NCBI GenBank assembly: GCA_000165345.1
Contig: CM000430.1
Coordinates: forward strand, 320,001-384,000
Direction: 5' to 3'
Length of the DNA: 64,000 nucleotides
Positions 826 through 58,337 of this stretch are shown here, one piece after another. The notes beneath the pieces were generated by a model. That model did not search any database. It was not told the origin of the DNA and was given only the letters and a program-made list of their open reading frames with translations. Within the stretch, counting starts at the first letter, position 1; the number at the start of each line of letters is the position of its first letter. The position numbers and the translations under genes were made by a program.

Positions 826-962
826 GACTTTTAGCCTAATAGAAAACACATAATACCAGGTTGGTTTGAATAACCCGTATGGGTGAGTGTACACTATCTT
901 TATGTACGTTTTGCACTAAGTTTTTATTCGTCAAGATTAAAGGTTAGTGATAGCGCAATTAC

Positions 963-970
963 TTGGCGCG
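963..970. promoter_or_regulatory. E2F-like GC-rich motif TTGGCGCG inside an otherwise AT-rich divergent promoter
   Basis: TTGGCGCG lies 59 bp upstream of the eIF3e ATG. Similar GGCGCC/GCGCGC cores sit upstream of Pus7 (2784-2790), the CorA-like gene (7105-7110), MCM3 (19322-19328) and the ING-like gene (29661-29671). E2F-like motifs of this kind have been described upstream of Cryptosporidium genes. Function here is untested. Confidence 0.3.
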
Positions 971-1028
971 TTGTCTCAATTTATTTTAGTAGGAATAACT
1001 TCTAAATAATAAAGAATTGTTCAAAAAA

Positions 1029-7062: not shown

Positions 7063-7128
7063 GAGCGTTTAATCTTTAGAAATAATAATGTCAAATCTAA
7101 CTTAGGCGCCGTAAAAAAAGTTGATATA

Positions 7129-8340: not shown

Positions 8341-8627
8341 AACTACTCTGTGTCATTCCGATTGAATAGAGTTATTTATGTTTTATTGCTGTAATACAAA
8401 TAAACTTTAATAGCACAAACTTTTCAGATAAAACCTAAGGCAGATTGAATTTCAAAGGTTGGAATAGAACCAAGCTATTTAACAATGCAAGAGAATAGAA
8501 AATCGTGTTAATAATTACTTTAAGATTGTCAATAATTTAATTTATTCCGCTATATTAAAATTTTGAAATTATAGCGGCAAATGTCAATTTCTGTTGTTTT
8601 AAGAGAATAATCTATCCAATAATAAGA

Positions 8628-9083
8628 ATGGTCTCGTTTGTTTGTGGAAATTGCCAAGATGTACTAAAAAAGAATAAAGTAGATTCTCATTGCGTTGGGA
8701 AATGCCGTGATGCCTGGGAATTCACATGTATTGATTGCAATTTTACTTTCGAGGGCTTCGACTATAAAAGTCATAATAGTTGTATAACAGAAAAAGAAAA
8801 ATACTGTGGTAAATTGGCAAATATTAAGAAACCTGTTCATTATCCAGGAAATAGTTTTGTAGATCGAAAGAAGGAGTTTCAGCTTATTATTGAGAAAATA
8901 CTAAAAAAAAATGGATCTATGAACTGGAAAAAACTAGTCAAAGAATCAATTAAAGAATATATGAATAGCGGAATTAATGATAATATTGAAGATAAAATTC
9001 TTAAATGGGAGTGCCTTGCTGCAATTCCTATTTCCTATACAACGAGTGAATCAAATATGGTTTCATTCAAACAGTCATTTTAG
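8628..9083 (+). CDS. LYAR: LYAR-type C2HC zinc-finger nucleolar protein
   Basis: MVSFVCGNCQDVLKKNKVDSH...CIDCNFTFEGFDYKSHNSCITEKEKYCG is collinear with human LYAR MVFFTCNACGESVKKIQVEKH...CIDCGKDFWGDDYKNHVKCISEDQKYGG. At 151 aa it is shorter than metazoan LYAR. Confidence 0.8.
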   Translation: MVSFVCGNCQDVLKKNKVDSHCVGKCRDAWEFTCIDCNFTFEGFDYKSHNSCITEKEKYCGKLANIKKPVHYPGNSFVDRKKEFQLIIEKILKKNGSMNWKKLVKESIKEYMNSGINDNIEDKILKWECLAAIPISYTTSESNMVSFKQSF

Positions 9084-10636
9084 GATGTTATTTTTTAACC
9101 AATATTGAAGAATAGTTGGAATGTTAAATTGCTGTATAGAGTCACTATATAATTTATGTTGCGTGAATTTTACTGGCGTTGTACTTAATGTACTATATAA
9201 AGCATTAGTTTTGATATTATATACAGGTTCTATTATTCCCATTTTCACCAACATTAGAAAAGATAATTGATATGATTCTTCTGCATGGTCGAGTCTAAGT
9301 CCAGATAAATTAGATTGAACGGAGATATAATTTTTCAGCGAATGTAATTCATTGATTATCTTTTTAAATGTTATATTTGTGACTCCTAATGTTATTAATT
9401 TAATTAATGCAACCAAAATTGTGTGTTGAATTATGCTGAGGGATTCAAATCTTTTCAACTTCAAGCATTCTTGTACCTTTATTCCCTGGTTAAGCAGTCC
9501 AAATTCATTCCTATTTTTTGAAAGTTTTTTTTTGTTGCTAGCTGAGAATATTTTCATAAACTCTTTTATATTACATTGAGGTGAAACTAGTAGAAACTTA
9601 TAAAGGAGATTGGATAAAACTTCGTCTTCCATTTCAAAATCGACTAAAAATTCCCACGACCTTATAACTTCTCTTGATTCCTTATTTTCATCCGCTAAAT
9701 AGGAAAATAAACTGTCTATGGAGTCGTTATATGAATCTATACTTAACTGGTCTATTTCAGAAACTAATCTTTTGTCGATCTTTAACACTTTTGCAGCTTT
9801 ATTTATAATACTTTTTACTCTATCTTGTTTTTTCGTATTTTGTAACTCCTCTAACAAGATTCTTCTTTGAGACATTCTGCTTTTTACTCTTTTTTCGAAG
9901 AAATCTGGTAAGTCAAACATTGATGTACTCAAAATAAGCACTAGGTTAATTTCGGATGAATGCATAATATCTACCAAAGTATATAACGCATACTGCCTAG
10001 AAGAAAACCCAGCCGTATTCGAATTAAAGTAAGAAATATTGGAAGCACCGATTATAATCGGTTCACAATTATCCAATGCGAACACTATTGTGTAGCCACA
10101 TTTTGAAAGCCCAGATAACTTTTCTTTTAAAATTGAAATCTTTTGATGGCCACTAAAAAGCCTCCTATGCATTGGAAAATATTCATTTATACGTTCTAGA
10201 AGAGCTGAGAGTAAAGTATTATCATCATAATTTAAACAATTAAGATGTATTATAATTAATTCGTTAGAAACATTTTCACTTTTCTTTTTATTAAAGTATG
10301 AAGAGAGCAACTTAGTTTTTCCTGCGCATGGTTTACCTATTAGAATGCATGACCTGCTCGTGCTGTTTATCATAATCTGATCAAAAATATTTTCTAGTTG
10401 GTTTGGGATTACTAAACTATTGTCACATCTCGATACTTGGTGTTCTTCCGTCAAGTTTTCGTGCAAATTTAATAAGTAAGTGCGAATTTGTCCTTGTAAA
10501 ACACTTAATAATTTATAAGAATAATTTTTTCCGCAAAACAAATGTTCATAAACCTTTAAAATTTAATTGATATCATTAATAATACAAATCTTAGTTAACT
10601 TACGTCGTTTATATACTTTTCAAGTTTCTTACTCAT
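9075..10636 (-). CDS. ORC4: Origin recognition complex subunit 4 (AAA+ ATPase). Two exons: complement(join(9075..10553,10604..10636)).
   Basis: Walker A GKPCAGKT. FEKRVKSRMSQRRILL matches human ORC4 LEKRVKSRFSHRQIHL. N-terminal LSVLQGQIRTYLL matches LSQVQRILRERF. The ORF-track start at 10541 is a TTG, and the conserved N-terminus has no in-frame ATG. An 11-codon first exon (ATGAGTAAGAAACTTGAAAAGTATATAAACGAC, MSKKLEKYIND) ends at a GTAAGT donor. A 50-nt intron (10554-10603) ends in AAAG and joins in phase 0 to VYEHLFCGKNYSY... Confidence 0.75.
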
Positions 10637-10671
10637 TTCAGCTTCAATTTAGAAATAATAGCCTGAGGAGA

Positions 10672-10681
10672 AGCGGGGGGG
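10672..10681. promoter_or_regulatory. G-rich GCGGGGGGG(A)n element about 40 bp upstream of the ORC4 start
   Basis: AGCGGGGGGGAAAAAAA on the plus strand, TTTTTTTCCCCCCCGCT in ORC4 sense. It resembles an extended E2F-type GCGGGAAA site. It is the only strong G-run in this intergenic region. Confidence 0.3.
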
Positions 10682-10721
10682 AAAAAAATTTTCGAACATG
10701 AACAAAAAAAAAGAATTACAT

Positions 10722-12320
10722 TTACCTAATATTAGTATACAAAGTAAGTGAGAACATAGGTATTGTTGCGTTGTCAATATAGTGAGAATATGCTTCTAGT
10801 AATGATGAAAAAAAGCTAATTATATATAATTTTGATAATGAATATTTACTTGAAGAAAAAAAGCAAGTTAGTTGCAGATACGAATATGTTGATATAAAAA
10901 ATGCAATCATTCCAATAAATGTTTTGTCTTTGTTCCCAGGTAAAGACATTTTCCCAAATAATATTCCAAAAATAGCGGAAAATGCATCTCCTACTCCTAC
11001 TGTTGCAATTCCTAAAGTTGCGGAAACGATGTCAAAATCTTGAATATCTTTTCTTAGTAGAAACTCCTTGAAAATTGGAATAGAAATCCCAACCAGCAAG
11101 CAAATATGGGTAATAATCAAATCGTTTATGCTATCTTTATTATCCAAAAAAGGTAACAATAATTTATTTATTAATTTTGTTAATTCTCTGTAACGGTATT
11201 TTCTCATAACCTCTAAATAAATGAAAATGCACGAGGCTAAATAGATGGAAATGACTGTGAATTCAATCGTTCCTTGAGACTCTTTAGTAGGCATTATATT
11301 AAATGATAATATTTGGGGAAAAAAGAGTGCGATTAAAAATAGATGAAAGATTTTCCGTGTAAATATTTTTTTTTTTTTTGAATCTGAGCTTAAGTTTACT
11401 ATTAGCTTAAACATAATTGGCAAGCAAAATATTACTAAAACCCAATAAATTATCAATGTTCTGATTTGAGAAGATTCAATAATCATCTTTAGAATGAAAG
11501 TAGAGACTTTATGGATATATTTGGCTGTATTATAGAGAGATAGGTATAATATACTCAATGCAGCAATTGTTAAATATTTAGAAAAACTTTTAATCTTAGA
11601 TTTGTCTTCTAATGGTATCTTTCTATAATTTAGCGTCATTTCAAATATGATGATGTTTACTGGAATCAGCAATATAGCAATGGCAGTTATACTATTAATG
11701 CATTGCTTCCATTCGAATATCGAATTTAAGATGTTTGCTTTAAAATTCGACAATGAAATTAAAAGCAGAAATGAAATTAATTGAGAAAAAATATTCAATT
11801 CACCAAATTGAGTACATTGGCCTCCTCCGCTTACAGAACTTAATGAAAGTTGTAATAAAGCCAGATGATATATAATTGCGCAAAATTCAATCCTAATAAT
11901 TTGATATTGATATTTATCTAAAACAATAAATAAGAAAAACAATGCAAATATTGTTATCTTAAAAAATAATGGCCACTTTTTTGAAAAAACAAAATTGTTT
12001 GCCTTATAAATAACCATACTTGATATTGAAATACAAATTGAAAATAAATTTACCGAATGATTTGAAATGGATTCGAAGCTCTTTTCACAATTCGCAATGG
12101 AAAGAAGGAGTAAAGGAAATGATAAGTTGTGAATAAAGTAAAAATGGGTATCATTTTTAATATTTACATTTAATTCCAGAAAAAGGCTCATAATACCTGT
12201 AATAAGCAATGTAAACAAGCTTAAAATAATGTTGTAATAGATTTTAGCTTCATTGAAATTAAGAGTTAAAACCAACGAGCTAAAAAGAATAATATCTATT
12301 AAGTGAAAAGTATTAACCAT
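10722..12320 (-). CDS. DOLK: Dolichol kinase (CTP-dependent, SEC59/DOLK family)
   Basis: Polytopic membrane protein. The C-terminal catalytic region VGVGDAFSAIFGILFGKMSLPGNKDKTFIGMIAFFIS...SSLLEAYSHYIDNATIPMF is collinear with human DOLK [35 protein letters not shown]...VSLLEAYTTQIDNLLLPLY. Confidence 0.75.
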   Translation of the reverse strand: MVNTFHLIDIILFSSLVLTLNFNEAKIYYNIILSLFTLLITGIMSLFLELNVNIKNDTHFYFIHNLSFPLLLLSIANCEKSFESISNHSVNLFSICISISSMVIYKANNFVFSKKWPLFFKITIFALFFLFIVLDKYQYQIIRIEFCAIIYHLALLQLSLSSVSGGGQCTQFGELNIFSQLISFLLLISLSNFKANILNSIFEWKQCINSITAIAILLIPVNIIIFEMTLNYRKIPLEDKSKIKSFSKYLTIAALSILYLSLYNTAKYIHKVSTFILKMIIESSQIRTLIIYWVLVIFCLPIMFKLIVNLSSDSKKKKIFTRKIFHLFLIALFFPQILSFNIMPTKESQGTIEFTVISIYLASCIFIYLEVMRKYRYRELTKLINKLLLPFLDNKDSINDLIITHICLLVGISIPIFKEFLLRKDIQDFDIVSATLGIATVGVGDAFSAIFGILFGKMSLPGNKDKTFIGMIAFFISTYSYLQLTCFFSSSKYSLSKLYIISFFSSLLEAYSHYIDNATIPMFSLTLYTNIR

Positions 12321-12575
12321 TTCGTATTAATTCCAACTTGAAAACATTGATTCATTGGTTTCTGTATTTTAAACTTGTTTTAGGGATATGTTCATCTTTA
12401 TATTTATGCAAAAAGAAAATGCCAATTTTAGCAATTTTAATATAATGGAATTAAACTGTTAACGCACAAATATTTGGCGCACTATATATTTTATTTTTGA
12501 ACTTGTAATGAGTAAACAGTATTAAGTTTAGAATAATTCATTTTTAAAATTTAGACCATAAAACTTAATTCCATA

Positions 12576-16603: not shown

Positions 16604-19192
16604 CTAAACAATCGAGTATATAGTATCTCCAGCAATCATAAGTCTATTTTCTTCTTCTAAGATCCGTAAAACTTCCTTTATATCCTTGTTAGTGATCATG
16701 AAATTATTCCCTTTCTCTTTTGATTTTGAGATAATATTTTTTAATAGTTCCTCCTCGAGCATCGCTTCAAGGCCTGATTCAGAAAATTGTTCTGCAATAC
16801 ATGAAGTAATGAATTTTTTCTTAAAATCAGCTAGCTCAAAATCTCCATGGTCAGTATTGCTTCCTTCTCTAAGAATATTTGCTGCAGCAAGAGCAACTTG
16901 GTGGCCACGAGCAGCAGACTCTTTACGGTTAATTTTTTCCCTACTGGGAGTGACAATTGAACTTGGAGGAGGAGCAATAATGCTATGTTCATTTTCTTCT
17001 AGAAAATTTAACTCGGGAGTTTTGCTTGGATGATTTGATCTTTGGTACTTTTTTTCTTCTCTCCTTTTATTCCTTGAATTATCTTCCTGTTGTAGTTCGT
17101 TTTCGATATCTTTCTCAAATACTACATTAAGCAGACTCTCTTTTTCAATAACTTCTCCAAACATTGCATAGCTGAGCAATTCAAATGCAATCAACACGTC
17201 TTCTGGGATTACAGAATCTCTCATCTTTAATTTTGAGTGTGCTGTCGCTAATCTAATTATCCCTTCAAGTGTACGAGTTGTGCAAGTGGTGCCACCCTTG
17301 CTTTGATTCATGCACTTAGCCCTTAATTCGGTAAAAATTCTCGCTACTAGCTCAGCTGCTTCATCGGTTAATTTTGGGGTATTTCTAACATATTTACAAT
17401 AATGAATATATTTCCTTAAAAATGACGTTGTTAATACTTTATCTTCAGATGAACCCTTTGAGTTATTTTGAGATCTCTTATCTGCTATTTTATTAGATAG
17501 AGGTTGCCAAATATCGTTCATCTCATTTTTCTCATTTGAATCATTATCTTTGTACTCAGGCTGTATAACAAAATTATTGTTTGCCTTATTTATTCTTGTA
17601 TCATTTATTGATGAATTCTTATTATATCTAACTTGTGCAAGAACTTGTGCAGCGATTTTTCGATCTTGCTGAGAGTTTCTAGAATCTTTTACAATAAATA
17701 TTAAATCAAACCTTGACAATAAAGAATCAGGAAAAGCAATTTGCCTGCTAAGTTCCATAAAGTCATCAAAATGGCCATATACTGGGTTTGCAGCTGCAAA
17801 AATAGAACATCTTGCATTCAGAGAAGCCTGTATTCCTGCCTTAGCAATAGTAACTCTCTGTTGTTCCATAACTTCGTGGATTGCAACCCTATCTGAAAAA
17901 CTCATTTTATCAAATTCATCAATACATACTATTCCTCTATCTGCTAATACTGTTGCTCCAGCTTCTAGTCTTCTTTCCTTTGTATCTGGATCATGAGTAA
18001 CTGCCGCAGTTAAGCCTACTCCTGAACAGCCCCTTCCTGTGGTACTAATTGCCAACGGAGCAATTGACATAACGAATCTTAACAATTGAGATTTACCACA
18101 AGAAGGTTCTCCTATTAACAATGTATGTATATCGCCCCTGATATGTGTTCCATTTTCAAGATTATGTTCTGCACCCCCTAATATCCCCAGCAATAAGCCT
18201 TTTTTAATGTATTCATGCCCACAAAGGGAGGATGCAAATGATCTTGACAAAATCTCAAAAGCGTCATCTCTATTTGAAATCTCTTTCATTATTCTTATTT
18301 CTTGAGGAGTTAATTCAGGAGAAGTAACATTTTTATTTAGTAATTGAATATTATTTGCAACAATTACAACCTTAAAAATTCCAGTTATTGCATTGTTTTC
18401 TCGTCTTGAAATTGGTTTGTAGACCCCCACAATCTTAACTCTATCCCCAGGCTTAATTGTCTCAACCAAATCATCTTCTGCTATTATTTCAATGCTCCTA
18501 GGTAGCTGCCCAGTAGGTATCATTTCAGGCAACTCCTGTAGTGTCATTTTTTGGGTATCTTTATATCTGCATAAGCCTATTTCCACCTCCATTTTGTTAC
18601 CTTGTCCATCTTCTGATGGAACGCCACTCTGAATATAACGATCTTTTATTAAGCAAGAAATATCGCGATGCCCTCTAACTTCGACAAAAGCCTGATTTGC
18701 TCCACCTGAAATATCATTTTGACCAATTAAATGGCCTTTGGAAATATGGACAGATTTAACTAATTTCGGTTTAACAATAGAGCATTGCGAAATTATACCT
18801 TCAACACAAACCATTTTGTTAATATTACTTGCAGTAAGGCCACGCGGCGTCAGATGATTACGTCCAAACCAACCACTGAACCCAACCCTCGCATTAAATT
18901 GTGAAGATTTTAATGGCGAATTTTTATCAATCTCTCTTTCTAGATCCACTAAATCTTTAATTACCTCTTCAAATGGGGATACATACAAGTAAGGCTCATT
19001 GATAATTTTCTGGGGAAGTTCATCACTTATCTTCCTTAAATCACCTAATTCTATAAGAATACGCCCTGACTCTATATTTTCAACTGCCATTTGCTTGATT
19101 TTGGACGAATATTCGTCATTACCTTGCAAAAAACTTTTATATACTTGAATAAGTTGCTCAGAGAGCTCGCTGTCTGAAAGACTACTAAGCAT
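16604..19192 (-). CDS. MCM3: DNA replication licensing factor MCM3
   Basis: MCM box [53 protein letters not shown]...[12 protein letters not shown] is collinear with human MCM3 [53 protein letters not shown]...[12 protein letters not shown]. Walker A [11 protein letters not shown]. Acidic Ser-rich C-terminus. Confidence 0.85.
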   Translation of the reverse strand: [862 protein letters not shown]

Positions 19193-19558
19193 CTTTAATA
19201 GATAATTCTATTCAGAATGTACGCACCTAGAACTGATTCTGAGTAGAATAACTTTTTTGCCACTTAAAATACTAGCTTGTTATAAATTAAAAAAAACATG
19301 AAGTGTGGGGAATCTTAAGTAGGCGCCCGATACAAAGTCAGAGTTGAAAACGAAGTGTAAAAAAAAAAAAAATCTATGAATACAACACATAATTTTGAAG
19401 GCTAACTCGCATAACACTTTATTAGACAAACGGTTTAACCCTATTCTATTTAAATACACAGTTTACATTATTTTATTATTAAGTAATGGCGATCTCTAAT
19501 GCTGTAAATCTGCAATTTTAGCCAAATTAGCAACATTTGGTCGTAAATTATCAATATT

Positions 19559-52900: not shown

Positions 52901-53946
<1,046 letters not shown>

Positions 53947-54241: not shown

Positions 54242-55229
54242 CTAGTCTGATTTTGAGAGTATTCTATTCCTTAAAGTTTCTATAACTTTTTCATTTGCTG
54301 CAACAAAATATGGATTAATTAGAACTTCTTTATTGTAGGTAAGTGGTTCCCCTAGTTTGAACTGGGTTTCTGATCCAGAAAAAAATGTTTCAAGCTTGTA
54401 AATATCACCGCAAGTTTGCCGTATAATAATATGGCTCGCACAAGTGTCCCATTCCATACAGTCATGAAACCTTGGATAGATATCAGCACGACTTTCAATA
54501 AGTTCAATAAATTTAATCGATGATCCGAATGGAATTTTAATATTGTTTTGGAAGAATTTCTCTGAGAATAAGTCTAAAATGGGGCATTTATAATTATGAG
54601 ATTTTAGTATTCTAATCACTCCATTATTGGGAAATGGTTTATTTGATTTGGGGATAAATTCAAGTGAGGTTTTGCCACAAATTACGTTAGAAGAATTTAA
54701 TGTAGCAATTTTATAAGCTCCTCCTAAATTATTAAACGAAAAAAATGATATTCCAGTATTTGGAATCGATACAACTCCAAGGGTTGGTTTGCCATTTTCA
54801 CAAAGTCCAATATTCACAGTGAATTCACCGTTTCGCCTCAAAAATTCTTTTGTACCATCAAGAGGATCAATGAGCCAACAAATCCTGAAAAAAATTAAAT
54901 TTTTTAGTTTAGTTTACAATAACTTACTTATACTTTTGCCTATTTTCCCAAGTATCAGTTTCCGATTCTTCTGAAATTATTGGTATTTGCGGCCACTTTG
55001 AAGAGAGTTTAGCACAAATGATTTCATTCGCATTTAAATCTGCTGTTGTGACTGGAGAGTTATCTTTATCCTTGTAATTAATTCTTAGTTCCGCATCAAT
55101 ATTTTTGTAAATTTCCATAATAACTTTGCTAGCAAGAAACCCAATTTCGACAACCTCCCTAGCAGAAATGACCACTTTACTGTCTAAATTAGTTTCGTAA
55201 CACAATTTATTAAATTCATCTAAGCTCAT
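54242..55229 (-). CDS. 3'(2'),5'-bisphosphate nucleotidase / inositol monophosphatase family (HAL2/BPNT1-like). Two exons: complement(join(54242..54884,54928..55229)).
   Basis: Exon 1 ...INYKDKDNSPVTTADLNANEII... matches Hal2 ITKNDNSPVTTGDYAAQTII. Donor TATAA|GTAAGT, 43-nt intron, acceptor TTTCAG. Exon 2 starts (K)ICWLIDPLDGTKEFLRRNGEFTVNIGL (W-x-DPLDGTKEF metal-binding motif). C-terminal MEWDTCASHIII. The ORF track splits it into two ORFs, the second starting on a TTG. Confidence 0.8.
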
Positions 55230-55294
55230 TTTTAACTATTTAATAAAAGAAAGCGCGATTAAAGAATAATTATAATGAAAGTAAAATGAGTTAA

Positions 55295-56706: not shown

Positions 56707-58337
56707 ATGAACAATAATTCAAAAAGGTAGGTAAATAATTTGCTTAAATATAAAAGATACTTTAAAATAAACATAACAAATATTAATGTTTTTTTTTGGA
56801 TTTTTAACAGGGCTCTAAAGTTAAACCTTCTTGATAACATTGAAAATCTTAAACAAAGCGTGTTGCTGAATAAGGCATCAATAGAGACAAATTATTTGGA
56901 AAGATGCGAGAAAGCAACAAAACATTGCATTACTAAAAATAATCACAAAGATGAGAATGAGGATAACTTAAGGCTGTTGTAAGTTAGGAAGGAGCTTTTA
57001 AAATAAACTTTCATTCAATAATAGGAGAAAAAGAGTTTCAATTAAGGATTTTAAAATTCTAAGCCCAATTGGCGCGGGAGCATTTGGTATAATTAGACTT
57101 GCGGAATGCAGGAACACAGGCAGCATTTATGCGCTAAAGCAAATGAGAAAAAGTATTATCAGAACAAAAAATCAGCTTGAAAGGATATACAATGAGAGAG
57201 CACTCCTGGCTCAAAATGCATCCGACTTTGTTGTAAAGTTATTTTACACATTTCAAGATGATAAACACTTATACCAAGTAATGGAGTATTTGCCTGGAGG
57301 GGACTTGATGTCATATTTAATAAAATATGATAAATTTAGTGAAGAAGACACTAGATTCTACATGGCGCAATTGGTTCATGCCGTTGATTTAGTTCATCAG
57401 TTAGGGTTTGTACACAGAGATGTAAAACCAGATAACATTGTTCTTGATTCTAAGGGGCATCTCAAATTATTAGATTTTGGGCTTTGCAAGTTTTCTCCAC
57501 TAATTGAAGGAGACGAAAATAGAGAATACCAAACAGAAAATCATTTAAGATGTGTCAATTTAAACGCTAAATCACATAAAGATAGTAATAAAGCTTCTGA
57601 AATTTCCTTTAATGAGAACAACGAAAACAAAAGAATTAACAAAGAACTTTATCGAGGATCAAATTTACTAGAAGAAAAGAATTGCCAAAATGAAGATTTA
57701 AATACTTCTCTGAAGCATTTGGACAGAAAGACAATTCATTCTACTGTAGGAACCCCACAGTATATGGCACCAGAAATATTTCTCAGACAAGGGTATACAC
57801 ATCTTGTAGATTGGTGGAGCGTGGGAATACTGATGTATGAATGTCTTTATGGAGGAGTACCATTTAATGATGATACGCATAACCCAATTAAAGTCGCAAT
57901 AAAAGTAATGCAGTGGGAAAAGTTATTATTACTCCCACATCCATGTAGAAAAATTTCGCCCGAAGCACTAGATCTACTAAAAAATTTATTGTGCCATCCT
58001 TCAAAAAGGTTTGATGGTGAACAGATTAAAAAGCATCCTTTTTTCAATGGTAAGTTTATAAATTTCGGTTAGTTTATTGAATTTATAACTTATGATAGAA
58101 ATTGATTGGGATAAATTAAGACAATGCCCTGCTCCATTCAACAAACAGATTAATGAGAATATATATAAAAGCAATGTTACGGCAGCAGAACTAATTGATG
58201 AGTCTCCAAACAACACAAGATATGGTGTTCAGGGTTCTTCACTAGTTGATATAAATTTCTTGGATTATACTTATAGGAATAAAGATCGTAATAATGATCC
58301 TATATCAATAGGAGAGGCCATTAAAATGTGCGGATGA
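56707..58337 (+). CDS. NDR/LATS-family (AGC) Ser/Thr protein kinase. Four exons: join(56707..56726,56811..56978,57025..58049,58099..58337).
   Basis: Exon 1 is MNNNSK followed by GTAGGT. Exon 2 is ...LERCEKATKHCITK...EDNLRLL. Exon 3 is RKRVSIKDFKILSPIGAGAFGIIRLAECRNTGSIYALKQMRKS...HRDVKPDNIVLDSKGHLKLLDFGLC...TVGTPQYMAPE..., collinear with human NDR1 [47 protein letters not shown]...[25 protein letters not shown]...TVGTPDYIAPE. It has the NDR-type activation-segment insert. Exon 4 (E)IDWDKLRQCPAPF...FLDYTYRNKDR matches VDWEHIRERPAAI...FINYTYKRFEG. All junctions are phase-consistent and the RLL|RKR junction is supported by homology. Confidence 0.8.

Follow-up and report, generated by a model that had tools for sequence, protein, structure and literature searches.

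The 5′ end of ORC4 in Cryptosporidium parvum: a conserved micro-exon and a G-box-class element in the upstream spacer

The stretch of DNA analysed here (the window: 64 kb, positions 320,001 to 384,000 of contig CM000430.1 in assembly GCA_000165345.1) belongs to chromosome 2 of Cryptosporidium parvum. It has a GC content of about 30%, and sequence comparison finds identical DNA in two further C. parvum chromosome-2 assemblies. On its minus strand lies cgd2_1550, the gene for ORC4. We are concerned with the 5′ end of this gene, where a very small first exon is followed by a short intron, and with a run of T and C in the spacer just before the start codon. On the plus strand the genes follow each other in the order NPR2, LYAR, ORC4, a 532-residue membrane protein, Vps26, a 121-residue open reading frame (ORF), an EGF/PAN protein and MCM3. 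This order is common to every Cryptosporidium locus that was fetched, as far as each of them reaches. The features at the ORC4 start are the following (window coordinates; lengths in nucleotides, nt):

9075 to 10553, minus strand: ORC4 exon 2, 492 codons plus stop
10554 to 10603, minus strand: ORC4 intron, 50 nt, phase 0, GT-AG, GTAAGT...TTTTAAAG, 16% GC
10563 to 10565, minus strand: intronic TAA in the frame of exon 2, which blocks extension of the ORF upstream
10604 to 10636, minus strand: ORC4 exon 1, 33 nt, 11 codons, MSKKLEKYIND, DNA ATGAGTAAGAAACTTGAAAAGTATATAAACGAC
10634 to 10636, minus strand: ORC4 start codon ATG with A at -3, first codon of the public 503-residue protein
10637 to 10721, minus strand: spacer of 85 nt from the membrane-gene stop to the ORC4 ATG (orthologous spacers, 60 to 123 nt)
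10673 to 10688, minus strand: conserved T-run then C-run, sense TTTTTTTCCCCCCCGC, plus strand GCGGGGGGGAAAAAAA, by sequence of the G-box class (G.GGGG, G[T/C]GGGG, GGGGGG; definitions in PMC3734150, PMC4117751, PMC12246861)

The long ORF of the gene (9075 to 10541) begins with TTG (10541-10539). The first-pass annotation of this DNA, made from the letters alone, had stated that no in-frame ATG precedes this TTG, and indeed none can, because the TAA at 10565-10563 blocks the extension. It had also proposed an 11-codon upstream exon, a GTAAGT donor and a 50-nt phase-0 intron. All of these are confirmed: the donor GTAAGT lies at 10603-10598, the acceptor AAAG/G at 10557-10553 (the slash marks the junction), and the spliced N-terminus reads MSKKLEKYIND/VYEHLFCGK and onward. 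We searched 400 nt upstream, combining every ATG with every GT[AG]AG[TC] donor, every AG acceptor and introns of 35 to 200 nt. The 33-nt exon with the 50-nt intron is the sole open, in-frame solution within these 400 nt. Unspliced RNA meets a stop two codons into the intron (GTA AGT TAA), and no further in-frame ATG comes until codon 72 of the spliced protein, twelve residues before Walker A. Hence, full-length ORC4 needs splicing. The further claim that the upstream exon offers the only possible Met start holds among splice solutions, and it goes slightly too far, since a protein starting at codon 72 is formally possible, at the price of losing the conserved N-terminus. During expression, the 33-nt exon would supply the start codon and eleven residues, the spliceosome would remove the 50-nt GT-AG intron, and the rest would be read from 10553 to 9075.

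This structure is conserved throughout the genus as far as we could sample it. We compared eleven orthologous loci, from C. hominis, C. meleagridis, C. ubiquitum, C. canis, C. felis, C. xiaoi, C. ryanae, C. serpentis and three assemblies built from public sequencing runs. Together with C. parvum these make 12 species, 11 of them intestinal and one, C. serpentis, gastric. An ATG-initiated first exon is found in all eleven of the other species; it measures 33 nt, except in C. xiaoi and C. ryanae (36 nt) and in C. serpentis (60 nt). The donor is GTAAGT in all of the 12 species but C. serpentis, which has GTAAGC. Intron length is 49 to 58 nt in the orthologues and about 84 nt in C. serpentis, where it was determined by hand. 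In 12 of 12 species the acceptor is AG, and the residues that follow the junction are V(Y/F)(E/D)N(L/I)F, with VLNNLL instead in C. serpentis. The presence of the intron at the same position in gastric and intestinal species means that it is older than the split between them.

The exon and intron are correct, and they are already public. The spliced 503-residue product is identical over its full length (503/503 residues) to four C. parvum entries (QOY43078.1, WKS76450.1, WRK30944.1 and KAL5369948.1). An ORC4 gene of 1562 nt, which is 1512 nt of coding sequence plus 50 nt, is called in four C. parvum chromosome-2 assemblies. The C. hominis model KAL3129411.1 also has 503 residues and the same 1562-nt gene span. 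The current public model thus gives the same protein with a span that implies the same exon 1 and intron, and there is no difference from ours. The original C. parvum Iowa II model (XP_626377.1) has 495 residues, is labelled partial and begins directly after the in-frame stop. The reannotation of C. parvum reported 1926 updates including new introns, and RNA-seq support for 100% of its introns, a figure for that annotation as a whole (PMC8744675).

The current C. parvum and C. hominis models are right, and several other Cryptosporidium models are faulty, because the 33-nt first exon was missed. ORC4 is fused to the upstream membrane gene in the C. ubiquitum model (611 residues; fetched locus L006, 2501-4641) and likewise in one older C. 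hominis model (785 residues). The models of C. meleagridis (455 residues) and C. tyzzeri (432 residues) lack part of the N-terminus. In C. felis the model takes a wrong acceptor further downstream and loses about 23 conserved residues (fetched locus L002, 2501-2700); the true acceptor is likely cacAG/ATTTACCTC near position 2592 of that locus. This list of faulty models is a useful by-product; the practical value of our analysis as a whole is small.

The second feature of interest stands in the 85-nt spacer. On the plus strand, GCGGGGGGG occupies 10673-10681 and a run of seven A 10682-10688. The whole element lies 37 to 52 nt before the ATG, with the part made of the C-run plus GC at 37 to 45. 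The first-pass annotation had described a G-run with seven A about 40 bp upstream as the only G-run of the intergenic region, which is accurate: it is the sole run of at least six G in the spacer, and the sole G7 in the window. A run of this kind is not in itself significant. Shuffled sequences lead us to expect 0.34 matches with at most one mismatch, and two are observed. Since the G7 alone is not significant, the case for the element rests on its conservation and not on the run. The sense-strand elements of the orthologous spacers are:

C. hominis: TTTTTTCCCCCCCGC
C. meleagridis: TTTCCTCCCCTCTCACCCTCCCACCCCCCAC
C. ubiquitum: TTTTTTCCCCTCATTTTCCCTC
Three assemblies from public sequencing runs: TTTTTTCCCCTC; TTCTTCCCCTCACCTTCCCAC; TTTTTCTCCCCCTCACCTTCCCAC
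C. canis: TTTCCTCCCCCGC..TTTCCCTCC
C. felis: TATTCCCCTCCCCTC
C. xiaoi: TCCCCTCTCCCCACC
C. ryanae: TTTTCCCCTCTCCCCA
C. serpentis: CCCTCC only

On the sense strand, CCCC.C (the reverse complement of G.GGGG) is found between -25 and -60 in 11 of 11 intestinal species. The rest of the spacers are too diverged for reliable alignment, and the C-tract serves as the anchor of the alignment.

What identifies the element is the agreement of sequence, location and gene class with the published G-box. The C. parvum site contains the hexamers GCGGGG and GGGGGG (10673-10681). The form bound on protein-binding microarrays, G[T/C]GGGG, is present in six of the 11 intestinal species, as GCGGGG in C. parvum, C. 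hominis and C. canis and as GTGGGG in C. meleagridis, C. xiaoi and C. ryanae. The G-box family has been defined by G.GGGG, by DTGTGGGG (motif 2) and KKGRGGGGRR (motif 6), and by GGGGGG upstream of heat-shock genes (PMC3734150, PMC12246861). Three ApiAP2 domains, those of cgd8_810, cgd2_2990 and cgd1_3520, bind G[T/C]GGGG on the arrays (PMC4117751); this binding is known from in-vitro microarrays on generic 10-mers (PMC3734150, PMC4117751). In an earlier study, every C. parvum DNA-replication gene examined (n=14) was also reported to have a G-rich motif upstream; the set includes the MCM3-like gene cgd2_1600 and not ORC4 (PMC1779779).

The hexamers are rare in comparable sequence nearby. We scanned 25 other non-coding segments of the same loci (5401 nt), among them the divergent promoters of the membrane gene and Vps26 and of LYAR and NPR2, as well as the spacer from NPR2 to MRS2, and found G-box hexamers on neither strand in any of the 25. 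Setting 11 of 11 intestinal ORC4 spacers against 0 of 25 controls gives a Fisher p of 1.7e-9, a value that overstates independence, as the species are related. At the density of the window's non-coding DNA, a chance match on one given strand of an 85-nt spacer has a probability of about 0.03. The sequences compared here thus show constraint on the element and place it, by motif, among the G-boxes.

Taken together, we consider it likely that ORC4 is a two-exon gene with a G-box-class element as its predicted proximal promoter element. The T-run and C-run would then act close to the start of ORC4, the C-tract would be read by a G-box-binding ApiAP2 (cgd8_810, cgd2_2990 or cgd1_3520 being the candidates), and the adjoining T-tract may help to keep the very short spacer free of nucleosomes. 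Several observations weigh against this reading. In five of the 11 intestinal species the hexamer is GAGGGG, a match to the looser G.GGGG or G[T/G/A]GGGG only. By hand comparison, the C. parvum site is one position off motif 6, and an exact match to motif 6 occurs nowhere in the window. The gastric C. serpentis has a spacer without CCCC.C and with CCCTCC only. Across the window, the preference of G-box hexamers for non-coding DNA is weak (9 of 20 loci, in about 27% of the sequence), and this enrichment forms no part of our evidence. ApiAP2 motifs were not seen in the peaks of sporozoite ATAC-seq, the sequencing of transposase-accessible chromatin (bioRxiv 10.1101/2025.01.17.633476). Finally, the spacer is at the same time the 3′ flank of a membrane gene on the same strand, and the constraint could come from 3′-end formation or from a dicistronic transcript.

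The first-pass annotation had called the element E2F-like. This label does not survive comparison. We searched the spacers of all 12 species on both strands for TTTSSCGC, [C/G]GCGC[G/C] and GGCGGG and found no match, nor is there any match to these consensuses in the window between 10637 and 12320. To be sure, the idea that the G-run is a degenerate E2F/DP site (GCGGG...AAA), placing ORC4 under the cell-cycle control of replication genes, is not without appeal. C. parvum keeps E2F/DP, the E2F-like motif is its most abundant upstream motif, and it has been reported before subsets of DNA-replication genes (PMC3734150, PMC12246861). Published E2F-like motifs are DTTGSCGCCH (motif 3) and TTTGGCGGGAAV (motif 4), with cores [C/G]GCGC[G/C] and GGCGGG (PMC3734150); the C. 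parvum GCGGG, with a run of A four bases further on, loosely resembles motif 4. In addition, MCM3 in the same window has a true GGCGCC core. Yet the CG at the centre is not conserved. CGC or CCCGC occurs in three of 12 species only (C. parvum, C. hominis and C. canis) and is absent from nine; the other intestinal species have CCCCAC or CCCCTC. At the very position where CGC suggests E2F, two close relatives differ, C. meleagridis with CAC and C. ubiquitum with CTC. Our scans do recover E2F-type sites in promoters next to the ORC4 spacer, conserved ones among them: in the control segments of these loci, TTTGCCGC turned up in six species, and GGCGCC and GCGCCAAA in two each. Since E2F-type sites are visible where they exist, the ORC4 spacer must be marked by something other than E2F. 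We therefore reject the E2F reading, to which we give next to no credence; the proposed E2F link for ORC4 falls away, and "E2F-like" should be replaced by "G-box". What stands of the earlier suggestion is the tie between a G-rich motif and replication genes, for which the published precedent concerns the G-box and not E2F (PMC1779779).

The chief competitor of the G-box reading concerns the gene next door. The relevant features are:

10722 to 12320, minus strand: upstream gene, 532-residue multi-pass membrane protein, no Pfam match; its 3′ flank is the ORC4 spacer
12473 to 12480, plus strand: TTTGGCGC, a canonical E2F-type site in the divergent promoter that the membrane gene shares with Vps26; no other E2F-type site upstream of ORC4 lies closer to it

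One could argue that the T-run and C-run serve the membrane gene or a dicistron, as part of a 3′ untranslated region, as a signal for 3′-end formation or as an element between cistrons, and that ORC4 is driven from the divergent promoter at 12321-12575, in which the E2F site lies. Just 85 nt separate the membrane gene from ORC4, which shares its strand. Polycistronic transcripts of C. parvum span two to four genes, and the usual driver of a dicistron is a peak of open chromatin at its 5′ end that carries an E2F motif (bioRxiv 10.1101/2025.01.17.633476). Moreover, G-box hexamers are not confined to promoters, as one of those in the window (42822) stands in a convergent 3′-3′ spacer. We nevertheless think this explanation unlikely: the motif enriched in inter-cistron regions is E2F and not the G-box (bioRxiv 10.1101/2025.01.17.633476), and the distance between the element and the ORC4 ATG changes little (-25 to -60). 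Alternatively, the tract could work without any specific factor, its dT/dC composition excluding nucleosomes or marking a pyrimidine-rich initiator, in which case any similar tract would suffice. In the open chromatin of sporozoites, poly-T ranks second among the enriched motifs (bioRxiv 10.1101/2025.01.17.633476), and both length and sequence of the tract vary among species, from T7C7 through CCCCTCTCCCCA to a C-rich block of 31 nt in C. meleagridis. But all the intestinal species keep at least four C followed by.C, with no change of strand, and comparable C-tracts are found in 0 of 25 other non-coding segments, when a generic feature should be widespread. A role of this general kind seems to us very unlikely.

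A few observations on the spacers stand apart from this argument. In C. meleagridis (locus L010, 1437-1470) the C-rich block is expanded to CCCCTCTCACCCTCCCACCCCCC, with four runs that on paper could form a G-quadruplex or an i-motif. As a general explanation we rejected the G-quadruplex, because four G-runs are present in C. meleagridis only and one or two elsewhere. The C. serpentis spacer (locus L005, 2415-2450) has a (TG)n-like repeat in place of the tract. A second, weakly conserved block, TT(C/T)GA(A/C)AA, lies just upstream of the T-run (window 10689-10700) in C. parvum, C. canis, C. ubiquitum and two of the sequencing-run assemblies, and is preceded by CCCC in three of these five. An Rfam scan of 10300-10900 on both strands, with E up to 1, found nothing, and a non-coding RNA at the ORC4 spacer is unlikely.

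MCM3, the other replication gene of the window, offers a useful comparison:

16604 to 19192, minus strand: MCM3 (cgd2_1600), E = 4e-161 against solved MCM3 chains and about 1e-89 against other eukaryotic MCM subunits
19303 to 19310, plus strand: GTGTGGGG (sense CCCCACAC), G-box motif 2 DTGTGGGG, 111 nt upstream of the MCM3 ATG
19322 to 19327, palindromic, no strand: GGCGCC, E2F-like core, 130 nt upstream of the MCM3 ATG, sense strand GGGCGCC

The GGCGCCC element that had been noticed in the MCM3 promoter is real, and at 19322-19327 it is a genuine match to the E2F-like core. The upstream spacer of MCM3 measures 366 nt, which fits the 370 nt given in Table 1 of PMC1779779. On the sense strand the G-box stands 13 nt downstream of GGCGCC, and in the C. 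parvum window it is oriented as the ORC4 C-tract is. Of the nine [C/G]GCGC[G/C] loci that the window contains, seven fall between genes, upstream of MCM3, eIF3e, TruD, MRS2, ING, a kinase and an unknown ORF. E2F cores in the window are hence not specific to replication, since they also precede eIF3e, TruD, MRS2, ING and the kinase. A published statement agrees, according to which E2F motifs are over-represented upstream of most gene clusters and not of replication genes specifically. Neither cgd2_1550 nor cgd2_1600 was found in those supplements of PMC3734150 that were searched for their expression cluster. Two further E2F-type sites in the neighbourhood of ORC4 are GCGGCAAA (TTTGCCGC on the other strand) at 8574-8581 in the NPR2/LYAR divergent promoter, which is kept in six species, and GGCGCC at 7105-7110 in the 66-nt spacer from NPR2 to MRS2, which also occurs in C. 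ubiquitum.

It is tempting to go one step further. The T-run and C-run in its fixed orientation could be a dedicated promoter of ORC4, or a promoter internal to a tandem unit that may be dicistronic, kept throughout the intestinal clade. The genes of the pre-replication complex would then be split between two regulators, with ORC4 under an ApiAP2 G-box alone, MCM3 under an E2F core plus a G-box, and the neighbouring housekeeping promoters of E2F type. We offer this as a tentative proposal and think it more doubtful than probable. If it were true, the locus would be a compact and testable case of how control is partitioned between E2F and ApiAP2 factors. To our knowledge, Cryptosporidium is the only apicomplexan genus that keeps E2F. 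We also know of no in vivo test of G-box function in Cryptosporidium, which makes an 85-nt spacer with a single constrained element a convenient target for reporter experiments. Whatever becomes of the proposal, ORC4 adds one well-footprinted G-box before a replication gene, with fixed strand and position in 11 species.

That the gene is ORC4 rests on matches to solved structures and on database names, because the Pfam match is below threshold. All six PDB matches of the protein are ORC4 (from yeast, human and fly), with E down to 8e-8. The spliced product is named ORC4 in NCBI and UniRef, the NCBI title being "origin recognition complex 4 orc4p-like AAA+ ATPase", and cgd2_1550 has been listed among the putative Orc4 orthologues of C. 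parvum (PMC3297607). Walker A, GKPCAGKT, occupies residues 84-91 of the spliced protein. The profile scan of the protein against Pfam gave a single match, AAA_22, at 20.3 bits (cut-off 27), and no ORC4-specific family. The first 94 residues, compared with the PDB, found no ORC4 and chance matches only; conservation of the micro-exon peptide is for this reason shown within Cryptosporidium only. At its other end, ORC4 converges with LYAR, and the two coding sequences share their last 9 nt (window 9075-9083). They overlap or abut in most orthologous loci, with a short annotated gap in C. canis and C. xiaoi.

Other genes of the window bear on how ordinary the ORC4 intron is. Further ORFs start within their domains or with TTG, a sign of additional 5′ introns. 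IMPase (54242-55250, minus strand) has an exon 1 of 302 nt and a 43-nt GTAAGT..CAG intron. The DnaJ ORF (52901-53743, minus strand) is without the first 42 positions of the J domain, and the kinase ORF (57143-58072, plus strand) begins at position 38 of the Pkinase profile, each implying a 5′ intron. A candidate for a still smaller first exon is eIF3e (880-1017, plus strand), which might begin with 4 nt (ATGG/GTGAGT, 132-nt intron). The 5′ intron of ORC4 is not unusual for this genome, in which IMPase, DnaJ and the kinase evidently have 5′ introns as well.

How, then, does the locus compare with what is known? As a whole, our finding is correct but ordinary and largely known, and nothing in it falls outside known kinds of features. 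The ORC4 intron is like other short 5′ introns of Cryptosporidium in its GTAAGT donor, its AG acceptor, its length of about 50 nt and its very high AT content. It differs from them by the small exon 1, which defeated several automatic annotations. With an E2F/DP site, the ORC4 element shares GC-richness, a flanking A/T run and a place upstream of a replication gene; however, it fails the consensus in every species, and its central CG is not conserved. With the G-box it shares the hexamer, the short upstream region and the place before a DNA-replication gene, and it is a further instance of this published motif and not a new kind of element. What has not been stressed before is its fixed strand and distance and the abutting T-run. 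Whereas the published G-box has no fixed strand or position, the ORC4 element is C-rich on the sense strand throughout the intestinal clade and stands at a nearly fixed distance from the start codon, and, unlike in the published G-box, the abutting T-run is part of the conserved unit.

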